64,000 nucleotides of DNA from an uncultured euryarchaeote (GTDB lineage Archaea; Thermoplasmatota; Poseidoniia; Poseidoniales; Poseidoniaceae): positions 66,780 through 130,779 of the forward strand of contig CAXFAS010000002.1 in NCBI GenBank assembly GCA_964001175.1, in the 5' to 3' direction. The translations under genes and the position numbers were made by a program. Below, piece after piece: positions 16,901 through 23,497 of the stretch; within the stretch, counting starts at the first letter, position 1, and every line of letters begins with the position of its first letter. Below the pieces are notes generated by a model, which was not told where the DNA came from, searched no databases, and was given only the letters and a program-made list of their open reading frames with translations.

Positions 16901-17000
16901 TATTTTGAGGAAGGTTCAGAGAAATGATATTGATGGTTTGTTAAAAGCAATTCATAATGCTGAAATCGAATATGCTAGGACAAGAAGATTCTGGGGTTAG
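13971..17000 (+). CDS. lhr: Lhr-family ATP-dependent DEAD/DEAH-box helicase
   Basis: APTGSGKT (motif I), DEVH (motif II), [26 protein letters not shown]. About 500 aa of Lhr-type C-terminal region with a CLKCK...CLKCKG zinc ribbon. Confidence 0.85.
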
Positions 17001-18064
17001 TTAGCCGAATTTTGTAAATTTATTCTTTCTGCTGCTTCAACAACGTCTCCTTCCTGCCACCAATCAACAGCGATAAATGTCGGCCTCTTACCATGTTGAT
17101 TCCAACATTCGTTCGCCCTTTCTACCAAGAAATCAACATCATTTGCTTCATCTGCTTGAGTAGGGTCTGCGAGTCCAACAGCATTACTTAGCCAATTATT
17201 CATATGGTAAACTTGTTGGTTTCCGTCACCTCTAAGAACATCACAGTTCATTTCAGAAGTACTCCTTTCACCGAAATTTGTTGTCCAGCTGTGTGTTAAG
17301 AAATCATGTATCCAAGGATGATTTGAATCACTCCCCTGCTCCCAAAAAATAACTACATTTGTTTTTTGATCAATCATCGATTGTAGAGTAGGCCAAGGTT
17401 CATTCATCTCATGAATGAAAACCTTGTCCATAATTCCTGAATCAATAAAAACCTGTTCTAAATGTTCGGGCTGTACATAATTTTCAACCAATATTGTTAC
17501 CACATCTTGAGGTTCAGATTCAATTTTATCATTAAGACTTGAAAGCCAGTCAACTGCACTAACATTGCCGTAATGACAAGGGCTTGCGCCTCTGGAATCA
17601 TCACCATGACAAAGCTTGACTTTACCTTCAGTCTCGTCATTCAGAGTCTCATAATGTGTATCTATCATAAAAGCCCTAATTCCTGCCTGCCATTGTGGGT
17701 TTAGACCTGTCCGATGATTACTTGCAGGGTAAAATATGCCATCATCTTCTGTTGCAAATGCATTATGTGTTTCAGGGAATGTTACATTATCATATGTCCT
17801 TAGACAGAGAATCAACATTCCATTACATGGTTTAGTGGGTTCCGGCTCCGGTTCGGGCTCTGGTTCTGGCTCCGGTTCGGGCTCTGGTTCTGGCTCCGGT
17901 TCGGGCTCTGGTTCTGGCTCTGGTTCGGGCTCAGGTTCAGGCTCAGTGTCAATGGTTGAATCATCATTTTCAGATTGATTTTTTCCAAGAGGGTCGGTAG
18001 GATCAATACAGCCCGAGAGTAACATGAGTAAGACAACTAGTAGAGTATTGAGTGTCCGGCCCAT
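16997..18064 (-). CDS. lipoprotein with (Glu-Pro)18 stalk and PLC-like phosphodiesterase (PI-PLC X-domain-like) catalytic domain
   Basis: Lipobox LLSGC after a signal peptide, then (EP)18. [24 protein letters not shown]...[15 protein letters not shown] resembles PI-PLC-X-like phosphodiesterases. Confidence 0.6.
17837..17944 (-). repeat. in-frame tandem repeat: 18 x 6 bp (GAR CCN = Glu-Pro), with an exact 24-bp unit repeated three times
   Basis: Plus strand reads ggYtcN x18. GGCTCCGGTTCGGGCTCTGGTTCT occurs at 17843, 17867 and 17891. Confidence 0.95.
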
Positions 18065-18579: not shown

Positions 18580-19875
18580 TCATTGCTTCGGCAAAAGAGA
18601 AAGTTGTTCATCGCCATCTAATTCTAGGTATTGTAGAATATTTCCTTGAAGATATAGGGAACCAAGGCTTACAATTAGTCCATTTTCTGAAAGATCATTA
18701 GACCCAAGGAATTCTAGTGTTGATTGTACTTGTTCAAATTCAAATACATTCTTTGTAGGCCAACTAAAGCCACCTAAGATGTCTAAATCGACACCAGGAT
18801 ATCTACCGCCATGGGGCTTAGTTAAGCAAATTTTACAGGGTTCAATTTCATTACATAATCTAAAAATTAAATCCATCATCAAGTCTAATTCTTTTTGTGG
18901 CGAAGTGCCAAAAATTAGAGTCCACTTTAATTTTCCATCTATTACAGGAGCGGAAGATCTGATTATTTGTGTTAGTTCTGGCAGAATTCTTGCCAGCCCT
19001 GAAGGGTTATGGGCAGCATCAAGTAAATATGAATTTGAATTATGATTGAACTGTTGCAGCCTGGCAGGCCAATTCAACAAACTATCTGCATTTTCTAGCA
19101 TATTATTTGGTAGATTAATCGCAAGTAATACTTCATTAGCTAAAATTAGAGCTTCTTCACGAGTAGAAATACTATCAGGGATTTCGATAAATTTGGGTAA
19201 TGCAGGGAGTTTCTGCTCGTTCAAGTTGAAATTACCAGCATTTTGAGACTCATTTGATACCGCATTTCTAAATTCTTCATCATCCATATCTCTTACTATT
19301 ATCGGTTTGTTTGGCCTTGCAATAGCGGCCTTTTCTGATGCGATATCACCAATATTGTCTCCTAGAATATCAGTATGTTCAAGCGTTATAGATGTAAGAA
19401 GGCAAATATCAGCAGGAACACAACGTGTGGCATCTAATCTTCCTCCAAGCCCTGTTTCTAAAATTATTACTTCAACTTCAGATTTAAATGCACAAACCAA
19501 GGATACTAGAAATGTCACCTCAAAGAAGGTAAGATTAATCATATCTGACTTCTTTTCACCCACCGACAAACGATAAATTTGATTTAGTCCATAATCAAAT
19601 TCCTCTTTTGAAATAGGTTTACAGTTTATTCTAACTCTTTCTTCGACGCGTGATACATGAGGGGAAGTAAACATCAAGTTAGAGCATCCTGAAAGGGTGA
19701 GAGATGCAGACATTAGAGCGCATGCAGTGCCTTTACCATTACTTCCTGCGACATGTATTATCTTCTTGGTACGGAAATCTAAGTTTAACCTTTCAACCAT
19801 GGAAAAGGTATTTTTCAAATCTAGAGACATACCATTTTGCTTAGTCATTTCTAACCACCCCCTGATATCAGACAT
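18580..19875 (-). CDS. folC: folylpolyglutamate synthase / dihydrofolate synthase (Mur ligase family)
   Basis: HVAGSNGKGT P-loop, ETGLGGRLD, and LDAAHNP in the C-terminal domain. Confidence 0.85.
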   Translation of the reverse strand: MSDIRGWLEMTKQNGMSLDLKNTFSMVERLNLDFRTKKIIHVAGSNGKGTACALMSASLTLSGCSNLMFTSPHVSRVEERVRINCKPISKEEFDYGLNQIYRLSVGEKKSDMINLTFFEVTFLVSLVCAFKSEVEVIILETGLGGRLDATRCVPADICLLTSITLEHTDILGDNIGDIASEKAAIARPNKPIIVRDMDDEEFRNAVSNESQNAGNFNLNEQKLPALPKFIEIPDSISTREEALILANEVLLAINLPNNMLENADSLLNWPARLQQFNHNSNSYLLDAAHNPSGLARILPELTQIIRSSAPVIDGKLKWTLIFGTSPQKELDLMMDLIFRLCNEIEPCKICLTKPHGGRYPGVDLDILGGFSWPTKNVFEFEQVQSTLEFLGSNDLSENGLIVSLGSLYLQGNILQYLELDGDEQLSLLPKQ

Positions 19876-19936
19876 ATTCGCTCAAATTAGTCCATTCAGT
19901 TTTATTCAATAGCACCTCCGATTATATCGATTTATT

Positions 19937-19958
19937 TTCGCCCCCCTTAGGGGGCGAA
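19937..19958. repeat. perfect G+C-rich 9-bp inverted repeat TTCGCCCCC-ctta-GGGGGCGAA in a divergent promoter region
   Basis: Read directly. Lies between folC (minus, start 19875) and the presenilin-like gene (plus, first ATG 19975). Confidence 0.9.
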
Positions 19959-19974
19959 TCTCCGAGACACTCAA

Positions 19975-22197
19975 ATGCAACATAGACAACGCAATAGTAT
20001 GAGCGAACAGTTAGATGCCGGTTCCGGTGATAATCAAATCTCGCCAGAATTCGCTCAAATAGAAAAGGAATTATCGTCGGAAACTTCAGTTCTTTCATTG
20101 ATGAGAGAACAAATGAAATCAATGATGGGTATGATGTCCATGTTCGTCATAACTATTCTTATTTCATTATTCATCAGACCTTGGTATGACGTTGCAGAAT
20201 TACATGCTTTTGGTGAATCAGGTGCTACCCAGGCAAGATATATTTTTCTTGAACTGGTGATGATTTTTATTTTTACAGCCTTCGTTATCATGCTAGCTAG
20301 ATACAAAAAAGAGTGGCTGATAAAGTATGGTATAATGGGTGTATTAGCCATTGCTCTGATGTATACGACAGTCCCACTTGCTCATATGTTTGTTATTGAT
20401 TTTGATGTAGATGATTTTGAATATACTGATACATATGAGATAGAATCAGATTATTTAATTGATGTAGGCATGGACGGATTTATTACTCATGAACTACTTG
20501 GAAATAGTACCAACTGGGAAGATTCAATAAGTTTCTGGAACCAAGATAGTTTGTCTTCAGGACAACCACAGTGGACATACAATATGCCTAGGTTACCAGC
20601 TGACGATTCACAAACATTAACTGTGGTTAAGTCAGACGGTTATCTAACATTCTCAAATGGAGCATGGATTACTTCAATTGATATATCAAGTGGTGATATG
20701 ATTGAGAATTATGCTTGTCACTTTGTAGAAGATGGCCAAGTTACGATTGGTTTGCAGATTGGTGACGGATTAACAAGTTGTGATTTAGCTGTAATAGTTG
20801 ACATTGGCGTATACACATTTTCTTCTAATGGAGATGTTATATTCCATCGAACTTTTGAGAATAGCCCTGGAGTGATGGCTTTCCAAGCAAGGTGGGGATT
20901 GCCACCTAGTATCGATCTTAGAAACGAATTGATTGACGCTACGATGATCGAGCAAGAAAGAATGCTTCTCGTAACCGAATCAACCGCATTAGTTTTACAT
21001 TTAGAAGAAAATTCAGAGTCTTTGACAGTTGATATTCAGAAAATAATTTTCCAATATGAGAGTGAAAAGAACATTACAAGTGTAGATTTTGGTCATTCTC
21101 CTTGGTCGGAAAATAGTATTTCATCTAATATGGGTGATGAAGGATTTTTGATTGTAGGAGAAGATGATGGTACTATTTTGGGATGGGAATGGCAGGATAA
21201 TTTACCAAATGATGTAGGAGCCTTTACAGTTCAAGATAAGATGAACCTGGAAGGTTTTGTTGATTCTATTCAGAATGTTCAAATTACTGATTTAGATGAT
21301 TCTGGTTATACAGATTTACTAATTACCTCAAATGAAAATTCACATTGGCTTCACACCAAGATTTTGAAAAATAAGATTTCATTCCCAGTTGATGAAAATT
21401 TCTCTCTAGGTGTGTTTGCAAATAATAATTCAGATCAAATTGAATTTTACTCAATTAATGCTGACTCAAATTTTGAAATAACCAGCGGAGAAATTACTGA
21501 TGATATGTTTGCTTTAGAAGGATTACAATTGTATGAAGTTCCCTTTTACATAGGAATCTTTGTTGCAATTTTATTAATGATACTTCTCTATCTACATAGT
21601 GAATGGTATGTTGTTAACACTGTTGGAGTTTTAGTTGGGGCTGGAGTAATAGTTATGCTAGGTGTAGCATTTGTACCGACCTTGATTATAATATTCATGA
21701 TTCTTGCCGCAATATATGATGCATGGGCAGTTTACAAGTCTAAACATATGCTTGAACTTGCTGACACCATGATAGGTTTACAACTACCAATACTATTGGT
21801 CGCCCCTCAAGATAAAGGATACTCATTCAAGGATGAAAAAGTATCGATATCTGATAATAATCCGGTCGAACTACCTCCTATGTCTGAAATGCCAGGCAAG
21901 AAAGTTAAGGTCAAGAAAAATAAGGAAGCCATGTTTATGGGCCTTGGCGATGTTATTTTCCCAGGGATGCTGGTTCTATCTTCAGTACAATGGCTCGATT
22001 CTGATTATGGTTTTAAGATTGCAATGTTCACATTATTTGGTGGATTATTAGGATATTTTGCTTTGATGACCTATGTTGCTAGAGGTAAGGCACAAGCAGG
22101 TTTACCACTTCTTAACGGAGGAGCAATACTTGGATATTTCATCGGTGGATTAATTTTTGCCGGGACAACAATTTTTGAATTAGGAATTACATGGTAG
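19975..22197 (+). CDS. presenilin / signal-peptide-peptidase-type (A22, GxGD) intramembrane aspartyl protease with ~380-aa extracellular insertion
   Basis: AAIYDAWAVY (YD), FMGLGDVIFPG (GxGD) and GLPLLNGG (PAL-like) lie in the C-terminal 220 aa. Three TMs at the N-terminus. Start uncertain (ATGs at 19975 and 19999). Confidence 0.7.
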   Translation: MQHRQRNSMSEQLDAGSGDNQISPEFAQIEKELSSETSVLSLMREQMKSMMGMMSMFVITILISLFIRPWYDVAELHAFGESGATQARYIFLELVMIFIFTAFVIMLARYKKEWLIKYGIMGVLAIALMYTTVPLAHMFVIDFDVDDFEYTDTYEIESDYLIDVGMDGFITHELLGNSTNWEDSISFWNQDSLSSGQPQWTYNMPRLPADDSQTLTVVKSDGYLTFSNGAWITSIDISSGDMIENYACHFVEDGQVTIGLQIGDGLTSCDLAVIVDIGVYTFSSNGDVIFHRTFENSPGVMAFQARWGLPPSIDLRNELIDATMIEQERMLLVTESTALVLHLEENSESLTVDIQKIIFQYESEKNITSVDFGHSPWSENSISSNMGDEGFLIVGEDDGTILGWEWQDNLPNDVGAFTVQDKMNLEGFVDSIQNVQITDLDDSGYTDLLITSNENSHWLHTKILKNKISFPVDENFSLGVFANNNSDQIEFYSINADSNFEITSGEITDDMFALEGLQLYEVPFYIGIFVAILLMILLYLHSEWYVVNTVGVLVGAGVIVMLGVAFVPTLIIIFMILAAIYDAWAVYKSKHMLELADTMIGLQLPILLVAPQDKGYSFKDEKVSISDNNPVELPPMSEMPGKKVKVKKNKEAMFMGLGDVIFPGMLVLSSVQWLDSDYGFKIAMFTLFGGLLGYFALMTYVARGKAQAGLPLLNGGAILGYFIGGLIFAGTTIFELGITW

Positions 22198-22204
22198 GAT
22201 AAAT

Positions 22205-23497
22205 ATGCTTGGAATTCATATCTTTAGAGAACAACCGGATTTAATCCGTGCTGACCATGATAAGAGGGGAATAAACCATGATAAAATCGATCAAGTAATC
22301 GACCTTGACAAAAAATGGTTATCACTACAACATGAAACGAATCAACTGCGTCAAAAGAAAAACACTGCAGCCAAAGGAATTGGAGAGGCTAAAAAGTCTG
22401 GTGACAATGCTAGAGCCGAACAAATTTTGAATGAAGTTGCCAGTCTAGGTCAAGACATTTCAGTATTAGAAAAACAAACTGATGATACGCTTGAATTACG
22501 AGATAAAATCCGAATGTCTATTCCAAATATTCTTCATGATGATGTCCCAGTTGGGGCTGATGAATCGGGAAATACCTTGCATAGTGTACATGGTAAAAAA
22601 CCTGAATTTGATTTCCAACCTAGAACTCACAACGAACTTATTGAGATGAATAAGTGGGTTGACCTCAAAAGGGCTGCAAAAATAACAGGTAGTCGATTCT
22701 TTTTCCTTAAGGGTGATTTAGCCCGTTTAGAATTTGCTCTTCAACAATATGCTGTTGATTTCATAAGAAATAGAGGTTATACTTTTGTCCAACCGCCTGT
22801 AATGATGAATAGGCAATCATACGAGGGAGTTACAGACTTGGGTGACTTTGAAACTGTCATGTATGGTATTGAACCAGATGGTTACTATATGATTGCAACA
22901 TCTGAACATCCTCTTACTTCTATGTTCATGAGTGAGACTATTCCTGAGGAACAATTACCATTGAAAATAGTAGGAGTTTCTAATTGTTTTAGAAGAGAGG
23001 TTGGCTCTCACGGACAGTCAGATTTAGGAATTTGGCGAGTCCATCAGTTTACCAAAATTGAACAAATAATTATTTCGAAGCCAGAAGATTCATGGGAATT
23101 ACAGGAAGAATTATTGAAAAATTGTATTGATTTGTGGGATGAATTAGGAATTCACTACGAGGTTGTCAATATTTGTACTGGGGATATGGGTACAGTTGCT
23201 GCTAAGAAGTATGATCTCGAAGCTTGGATTCCAGGTGCTCAACAATACAAGGAGATAGTATCTTGTTCTAACTGTACTGACTATCAGGCTAACCGATTAC
23301 AGATTCGTTATGGGCAACCAGGTCATTCAGGGCAACCAATAGCACATACATTAAACTCAACTGCAGTAGCAACATCTAGGGCATTGGTTGCAATTATGGA
23401 ACAAAATCAACTAGAAGATGGAAGAGTTGTAATCCCACAGGTATTGAGACCACATATGGGTGGGCAAGAAATTCTTGAACCTTGTAATTGGGGATAA
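22205..23497 (+). CDS. serS: seryl-tRNA synthetase (bacterial/common type)
   Basis: N-terminal coiled-coil arm, class II motifs FRRE...G, TSEHPL, and TLNSTAVATSRALVAIMEQ. Confidence 0.95.
   Translation: MLGIHIFREQPDLIRADHDKRGINHDKIDQVIDLDKKWLSLQHETNQLRQKKNTAAKGIGEAKKSGDNARAEQILNEVASLGQDISVLEKQTDDTLELRDKIRMSIPNILHDDVPVGADESGNTLHSVHGKKPEFDFQPRTHNELIEMNKWVDLKRAAKITGSRFFFLKGDLARLEFALQQYAVDFIRNRGYTFVQPPVMMNRQSYEGVTDLGDFETVMYGIEPDGYYMIATSEHPLTSMFMSETIPEEQLPLKIVGVSNCFRREVGSHGQSDLGIWRVHQFTKIEQIIISKPEDSWELQEELLKNCIDLWDELGIHYEVVNICTGDMGTVAAKKYDLEAWIPGAQQYKEIVSCSNCTDYQANRLQIRYGQPGHSGQPIAHTLNSTAVATSRALVAIMEQNQLEDGRVVIPQVLRPHMGGQEILEPCNWG

Follow-up and report, generated by a model that had tools for sequence, protein, structure and literature searches.

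A presenilin/SPP homologue of Poseidoniales archaea with a predicted beta-propeller in the loop between its third and fourth transmembrane helices

The window analyzed here is a 64,000-nucleotide stretch of DNA from an uncultured Candidatus Poseidoniaceae archaeon (Marine Group IIa, MGIIa; contig CAXFAS010000002.1 of assembly GCA_964001175.1, positions 66,780 to 130,779). It contains, at positions 19975..22197 of the + strand, the gene of an intramembrane aspartyl protease of the A22 type, a presenilin/signal peptide peptidase (SPP) homologue (PSH), encoded as a single open reading frame (ORF) of 740 amino acids counted from the first ATG. The transmembrane (TM) protease core is interrupted between TM3 and TM4 by an acidic ectodomain (aa 141-520; 20395..21534, +), which is predicted to fold into a beta-propeller of about seven blades. 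By analogy with gamma-secretase, we propose with moderate confidence that the propeller serves the only PSH of this archaeon as a cis-acting gate or receptor.

The assignment of the protein to family A22, originally based on its catalytic motifs, was borne out by profile searches, in which the scores exceeded the curated cut-offs by a wide margin. The Pfam SPP/presenilin homologue profile PF06550 matched with an E-value of 1.4e-49 and 169.5 bits (cut-off 23.9), and the NCBIfam PSH equivalog NF041679 matched with 211.3 bits (cut-off 125), both in two stretches. Residues 110-294 of the chain in PDB entry 4HYC, the PSH of Methanoculleus marisnigri (MCMJR1), align to aa 530-730 (E 1.5e-29; 3.8e-38 with a profile), and the motifs of the two proteins coincide. 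The first catalytic aspartate, D582 of the YD motif in TM6 (Y581-D582), is part of AAIYDAW, which aligns to LAVYDAI with D162 of 4HYC. The second, D659 of the GLGD motif in TM7 (aa 656-659; 21940..21951, +), aligns to GMGD with D220. Both aspartates are invariant in 94 diverse homologues. GLPPL is the counterpart in 4HYC of the PAL-type motif GLPLL (709-713), located where TM9 begins; P711 of this motif is at least 90% conserved in the same 94 sequences. All sequence-defined features of the PSH family are present, the catalytic motifs also fall in line with the profiles of the family, and the nine-helix GxGD core is complete, with both catalytic aspartates and the PAL-type motif. The possibility that the protein is a pseudo-protease was rejected.

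Hydropathy and a structure model calculated with AlphaFold2 (AF2) agree with the original count of three plus six TM helices, nine in total, with a long loop between TM6 and TM7. TM1-TM3 occupy aa 39-140 (helices 39-73, 87-109, and 113-140; 20089..20394, +) and include the region covered by SPP profile positions 1-80. TM4-TM6 follow the insert at aa 521-588 (helices 521-540, 544-565, and 568-588 in the model; 21535..21738, +), with the catalytic YD encoded by nucleotides 21715-21720. TM7-TM9 occupy aa 657-734 (helices 657-673, 679-702, and 706-734 in the model; 21943..22176, +), with GLPLL encoded by nucleotides 22099-22113. Between TM6 and TM7 (21739..21942, +), the model contains a TM6a-like helix (591-601), a strand (607-611), a lysine-rich disordered cytoplasmic loop (613-650), and a second strand (652-656). 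The modeled helix is equivalent to TMD6a of presenilin, and the two modeled strands to its beta1/beta2 strands, which pair with the substrate (PMC13507816).

The two stretches of the profile match define the position of the insert. In a profile search of the genome, positions 1-80 of the SPP profile correspond to aa ~54-135 and positions 92-281 to aa 524-728 of one stop-free frame. Because these two parts flank the insert, it stands in place of a TM3-TM4 loop of about 10 residues. This loop has 2-20 residues in classical PSHs, as opposed to 380 here. The split of the profile, the TM3-TM4 distances, and the junctions of PSHs that lack an insert, referred to below as plain, agree in placing the insert in the TM3-TM4 loop, as had been deduced from the count of helices. 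Searches of this genome detected only this one PSH gene, and the propeller nowhere else. The idea of a second, plain PSH performing housekeeping functions in this genome was rejected.

The insert had been described as soluble, acidic, rich in beta-strands, and propeller-like, and its composition, structure model, and fold matches agree with this description. It contains 69 aspartates and glutamates versus 12 lysines and arginines, resulting in a net charge of -57, and its hydropathy profile has no hydrophobic, TM-like segment. It also contains four N-x-S/T sequons and two cysteines, Cys248 and Cys269 (20716..20781, +). Both cysteines are invariant in Poseidoniaceae, and C269 is at least 90% conserved throughout the order; they may form a disulfide bond in propeller blade 3. 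A first AF2 model, calculated from an alignment of 36 close homologues, had a predicted local distance difference test (pLDDT) score of ~85 in the insert, a poor membrane core (pLDDT 40-60), and a predicted TM-score (pTM) of 0.53. It was replaced by a model calculated from 94 diverse sequences, including plain PSHs and other insert-bearing PSHs, which has a mean pLDDT of 85, a pTM of 0.70, and pLDDT values of ~90 in both insert and core. In this model, an all-beta domain of 30-32 strands spans residues 152-507. All 50 matches listed by a Foldseek search of the PDB are beta-propellers, mostly seven-bladed, among them DDB1 BPB, Swd1, RACK1, the clathrin terminal domain, Pex7, and BamB, with TM-scores normalized to the target of up to 0.60. 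The number of strands is compatible with seven four-stranded blades and a two-stranded neck, where both the blade count and the orientation of the domain are based on DSSP strings and fold matches.

The sequence of the insert retains few traces of this fold. The original prediction noted motifs of the calcium-binding, FG-GAP type, and one such motif is present: the segment ITDLDDSGYTDLLITS (aa 437-452; 21283..21330, +) forms an FG-GAP-type hairpin D-x-D-x-S-G-x-x-D between two strands of the model. Its putative ligand positions, D439-x-D441-x-S443-G444-x-x-D447, are kept in Poseidoniaceae, and the other blades lack such a loop. The isolated insert has no Pfam match up to E = 10, FG-GAP included, and the FG-GAP/VCBS repeat profiles PF01839 and PF13517 do not match it. 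Searches of the PDB with sequence and profile identified nothing significant for the insert, and only PSH for the core. For ten divergent relatives, Pfam gave no more than hints, with values of 0.046 for FG-GAP_3 and 0.074 for Beta-prop_BBS7. An internal repeat is undetectable in the profile of Poseidoniales inserts (0.3%), compared with 98.8% in inserts of a similar fold class from other archaea (group B, described below). Therefore, the sequence memory of the blades has been wholly lost in Poseidoniales.

The propeller very probably resides outside the cell, with the N-terminus and the lysine-rich TM6-TM7 loop in the cytoplasm. Using the helix ends of the AF2 model, lysines and arginines account for 17 of the 127 residues (13%) in predicted inside segments but for 13 of 424 (3%) outside, and the short loops alone contain six inside and one outside. 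This bias follows the positive-inside rule and matches the orientation of presenilin, in which the N-terminus and the TM6-TM7 loop are cytosolic, so that the extracellular placement of the insert put forward in the original prediction is supported. The conserved cysteine pair and the four sequons agree with it. Eukaryotic SPP has the orientation opposite to that of presenilin (PMC2947513), and in eukaryotes most WD40-like propellers, the kind that leads the list of fold matches, are cytoplasmic; both observations would suit an inverted, SPP-like topology with the propeller in the cytoplasm. We regard this arrangement as very improbable, because the distribution of charges is strongly contrary to it, the TM6-TM7 loop (aa 589-656, with 11 lysines and arginines) resembles its cytosolic counterpart in presenilin, the insert itself combines 3% lysine and arginine with sequons and a conserved cysteine pair, and the inserts of group B resemble secreted FG-GAP/VCBS proteins.

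Conservation of the insert and its loss in one clade

The interrupted protease is a conserved gene of the order Poseidoniales. Long homologues identified by a word-indexed search number more than 1000. The 120 best-matching ones are 51-94% identical to the protein from the window, and almost all of them extend over its full length (716-768 aa); several of these 120 are annotated as PSH of Candidatus Poseidoniaceae. PSH is present in 147 of the 151 genomes of the order, and the split profile match within an uninterrupted frame of ~700-830 aa is found in all eight genera of Poseidoniaceae and in the sole genus of the second family. The original prediction considered that the helices with the ectodomain and the C-terminal protease might be separate genes in other assemblies, divided by a frameshift or stop codon; a single stop-free frame runs through the gene in the listed genomes of the order. 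The same uninterrupted frame recurs in independent assemblies and metagenomes, complete single-contig genomes included, and the insert is a conserved folded domain devoid of intein or transposase signals. A gene fusion created by an assembly or frameshift error, or an intein-like or other mobile insertion, is thus refuted as the origin of the long ORF; we found no point in its favor and consider its probability negligible.

A survey of archaeal homologues showed that PSHs with an insert in this loop also occur in at least ten other families of Thermoplasmatota. The order has a third family, the sister family, in which genera g10, g11, g16, and g18-g20, with genomes of 1.6-2.2 Mb, keep the insert. 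Genera g12-g15, g17, g21, and g22 (1.2-1.7 Mb) encode contiguous plain PSHs in frames of ~290-500 aa. A maximum-likelihood tree of the core was calculated after removal of the insert from 30 sister-family loci together with Poseidoniaceae and outgroup sequences. The 21 plain PSHs of the sister family form one clade (100/100) nested inside the insert-bearing PSHs. This clade is sister to the insert-bearing sequences of g11 and g19 (97/94), and those of g18 and Poseidoniaceae branch outside. The inserts of g11 and g19 match the insert from the window directly (E 5e-11 to 1e-6), and those of g18 match the family profile over its full length at 99.8%. Because all of them are homologous to the insert from the window, the insert must have been present before the two families diverged. 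Plain and insert-bearing genomes share the same locus, with folC on the opposite strand before PSH and serS after it, and the junction in the plain form is clean. Together with the single plain clade, this shows that the propeller was lost by a single deletion in situ, which took place in the ancestor of the sister-family genera with small genomes. Since the plain clade kept the core at the same locus after losing the propeller, the propeller is an accessory module and does not belong to the catalytic machine. One metagenome-assembled genome (MAG) of genus g22 (G087, 1.6 Mb) contains three separate copies of plain PSH on contigs C6, C32, and C41, where other genomes have one; these could be paralogues or come from mixed strains in the bin.

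The propeller evolves several times faster than the core, as comparisons of the same sequence pairs show: inserts are 15-33% identical, whereas cores are 41-77% identical. The only insert positions at least 90% conserved in both families are W200, G240, C269, P310, G373, G395, G399, and D439, which are mostly structural. A GHSPWS loop (aa 373-378; 21091..21108, +) is kept in Poseidoniaceae and in sister-family genera g11 and g19. The hairpin is degenerate in the sister family, where it reads DDQRDGRTD or DCCSGGSND and the putative calcium ligands are not conserved. Because the insert changes fast, has few fixed positions, a degenerate hairpin, and no repeat, its conservation pattern suits a surface-exposed scaffold or recognition domain rather than an enzyme.

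Inserts in the same loop extend beyond Poseidoniales. A HMMER search of 1.84 billion representative sequences identified 587 relatives, and among those that are complete the TM3-TM4 distance is bimodal, with either 2-20 or 190-407 residues. A search of 201 genomes of the phylum detected split matches in ten or more additional families of Thermoplasmatota (f7, f10, f16, f18, f35, f37, f39, f42, f43, and f44), whose genomes mostly have 2-5 Mb. In the sister order, which belongs to the same class, the PSHs are plain and encoded by frames of 300-337 aa. In one family of the phylum (f6), PSH was not found in any of the 17 listed genomes (98-99% complete, 1.3-1.9 Mb); most other families have one.

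The inserts outside Poseidoniales are of several kinds. Those of group B, from archaea named 'Thermoplasmata' and 'Methanomassiliicoccales', have recorded Pfam matches to FG-GAP, VCBS, BBS2_Mid, or Itfg2, contain a strong internal repeat of ~47 residues (98.8%), and match free-standing FG-GAP/VCBS proteins. Alignment of the Poseidoniales and group B insert profiles with hhalign resulted in a weak full-length match (68% probability, E 4.7e-5, 240 columns), best aligned at the hairpin (437-449), and the sister-family insert profile matched group B similarly weakly (52%). The kinship of the two kinds of insert is no more than suggestive, as is the link of the Poseidoniales insert to FG-GAP domains, which relies on one motif and on this 52-68% profile-profile match to FG-GAP-bearing inserts of Thermoplasmatota. 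In the B5 group (P0179, P0208, P0219, P0225, P0238, and P0259; Thermoplasmata/Thermoplasmatota MAGs), the same TM3-TM4 loop is occupied by a soluble insert of 277-340 aa, for which we detected no relation to the Poseidoniales or group B inserts (<1% in profile-profile comparison) and no Pfam match. Two further clusters (P0150 and P0221) have inserts of ~190 residues. Every type of insert is soluble and acidic. The global tree of PSH cores is poorly resolved outside Poseidoniales, and its starred branches force at least three changes by gain or loss of an insert.

Possible role of the propeller

Structures of gamma-secretase with bound substrates show that TM2, TM3, and TM5 surround the substrate helix. 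An extracellular propeller attached to the outer ends of TM3 and TM4 would consequently be positioned next to the point where the ectodomain stub of a substrate emerges. There it may select the single-pass membrane proteins that gain access to the active site. One possibility is a steric gate, through which only substrates with a short stub would pass, as proposed for nicastrin and the PDZ tandem of RseP; another is a receptor on which particular surface proteins dock. The core would then cut within the TM helix of the substrate, as PSH alone does in vitro, cleaving APP C99 without partner proteins (PMC13507816). Several observations weigh against a role as gate or receptor. The loss of the propeller by an entire clade indicates that PSH works without it, so such a role is non-essential. 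Across the order, the propeller shows no evident patch of conserved surface residues of the kind expected at a binding site. Furthermore, physiological substrates are not known for any archaeal PSH (PMC2947513).

The hairpin and the attachment of the propeller also bear on a different function, that of a ligand or ion sensor. Such a sensor would bind calcium through the D-x-D-x-S-G-x-x-D loop, or a glycan, and switch the protease allosterically, making the protein a one-component device of regulated intramembrane proteolysis. The single FG-GAP-type loop has been retained in form across the order after all other repeat signal was lost, and since the propeller is directly continuous with TM3 and TM4, its motion could be passed to the core. 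However, the sister family has not conserved the putative calcium ligands, conserved pocket residues are absent across the order, and the gene is linked to folC and serS instead of to a transcription factor or an anti-sigma-like substrate. We therefore consider a sensor unlikely.

Alternatively, the propeller might be independent of proteolysis, for example an adhesin or a scaffold of the cell envelope for which the nine-helix core is a mere anchor. The fast evolution of the insert is like that of many surface proteins, the inserts of group B match free-standing FG-GAP/VCBS surface proteins, and the propeller can vanish while the core stays. On the other hand, ectodomains, including ones unrelated in sequence, have been retained by 13 or more family-level lineages in precisely this loop of the enzyme, which argues for a functional tie between ectodomain and protease, and the catalytic residues are invariant in the insert-bearing forms. 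These considerations make a propeller unconnected to the protease improbable.

Gating or reception by the propeller remains the reading that we prefer. We also speculate, much more tentatively, that these proteins of Thermoplasmatota are single-chain equivalents of presenilin plus nicastrin that evolved independently of eukaryotes. Entry of substrates would be controlled by the ectodomain in the TM3-TM4 loop, with at least two ectodomains unrelated in sequence recruited to this position in different lineages, and the ectodomain discarded in one streamlined lineage. If this were true, ectodomain gating would be a recurrent solution for GxGD proteases, and the TM3-TM4 loop would mark the position from which entry is controlled.

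The choice of substrates by presenilin-type proteases, and the contribution of nicastrin to it, are still debated, and gamma-secretase is hard to study since it is a complex of four proteins. A single-chain prokaryotic presenilin homologue with its own ectodomain would offer a simple system for testing ectodomain gating, and natural orthologues with and without the propeller at the same locus sharpen the comparison. Comparison with the propeller-less clade could also point to candidate substrates or partners. In the surface ocean, few archaea are as abundant as those of Marine Group II, which possess numerous large, anchored proteins at their surface.

Start codon and gene neighborhood

Translation of PSH probably starts at M9 (19999..20001, +) instead of the first ATG at 19975, because M9 is invariant in 36 relatives, unlike residues 1-8, which are unconserved. 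The N-terminal tail as a whole (aa 1-38; 19975..20088, +) is poorly conserved and predicted to be disordered or cytoplasmic. The gene ends with the stop codon TAG at 22195-22197. Upstream lies a divergent FolC/Mur-ligase-like gene (18580..19875, -), and downstream is serS, encoding seryl-tRNA synthetase (22205..23497, +); both were named from their translations. Since serS begins only 7 nt after the stop codon of PSH, the two genes are probably co-transcribed. The order folC(-), PSH(+), serS(+) at 18580-23497 of the window is kept throughout Poseidoniales (loci L003-L037). These neighbors give no hint of function, as both are housekeeping genes.

The intergenic region between folC and PSH is AT-rich and contains a G+C-rich perfect palindrome (cgcccccc tta gggggcg) at 19937-19958, ~17 nt before the first ATG. 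Farther upstream, a lipoprotein-like ORF (16997-18064, -) has a run of ~18 Glu-Pro dipeptides after its N-terminal cysteine. It adjoins a dCMP-deaminase-like gene, also in relatives (76-86% identity, L003-L005).

Comparison with known systems

The protease family, the propeller fold, and the principle of control by an ectodomain are all known; we found their combination, and this position of the ectodomain, described nowhere. Annotation pipelines name the protein PSH and are silent on the insert. The layout had been thought to be undescribed, and our full-text literature search likewise found no published description of a PSH with a TM3-TM4 propeller. The original paper on MCMJR1 (PMC2947513) and a review of archaeal membrane proteases deal with the compact form of nine TM helices only. 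MCMJR1 itself (4HYC/4HYG; PF06550; NF041679; MEROPS A22) shares the family, the YD, GxGD, and P-x-L motifs, and the nine-helix core with the protein from the window. It differs in having 301 aa and a short TM3-TM4 loop at the place of the 380-residue propeller.

Similar in layout are the PSHs of group B (P0176; P0294, 'Thermoplasmata archaeon'; P0295, 'Methanomassiliicoccales archaeon'), with acidic, soluble inserts of 270-375 aa in the same loop. Their hairpin is the part best aligned to Poseidoniales, as D-x-D-x-(D/S)-G-x-x-D, but they have Pfam propeller matches and the ~47-residue repeat, and the Poseidoniales insert has neither.

Intramembrane proteases with ectodomains are also known outside this family or outside archaea. 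Site-2 proteases of the RseP type (M50) have periplasmic PDZ domains in an extracytoplasmic loop of their core, proposed to be a size-exclusion filter. They differ from this PSH in being zinc metalloproteases, in the PDZ fold, and in the loop that is used. SPPL2a/b/c are A22 proteases with an ectodomain of their own, a luminal PA domain. However, this domain is N-terminal, following a signal peptide, and not within the core, and the proteins have SPP-type topology and are eukaryotic.

The comparison that informs the proposed role is that with gamma-secretase, in which a presenilin-type core likewise lies under a large ectodomain, and whose TM6a helix and two strands are recovered in our model. 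The ectodomain of nicastrin has an aminopeptidase-like fold. No nicastrin chain is among the 50 fold matches listed for the insert, and a homologous ectodomain fold was not encountered. Nicastrin is a separate single-pass subunit, whereas the propeller is part of the same chain as the protease, and the resemblance is one of analogy, not homology. In the account cited by a review (reference 196 in PMC13507816), nicastrin is said to exclude substrates with long ectodomains sterically, which is the kind of selection that the propeller may exert in cis.

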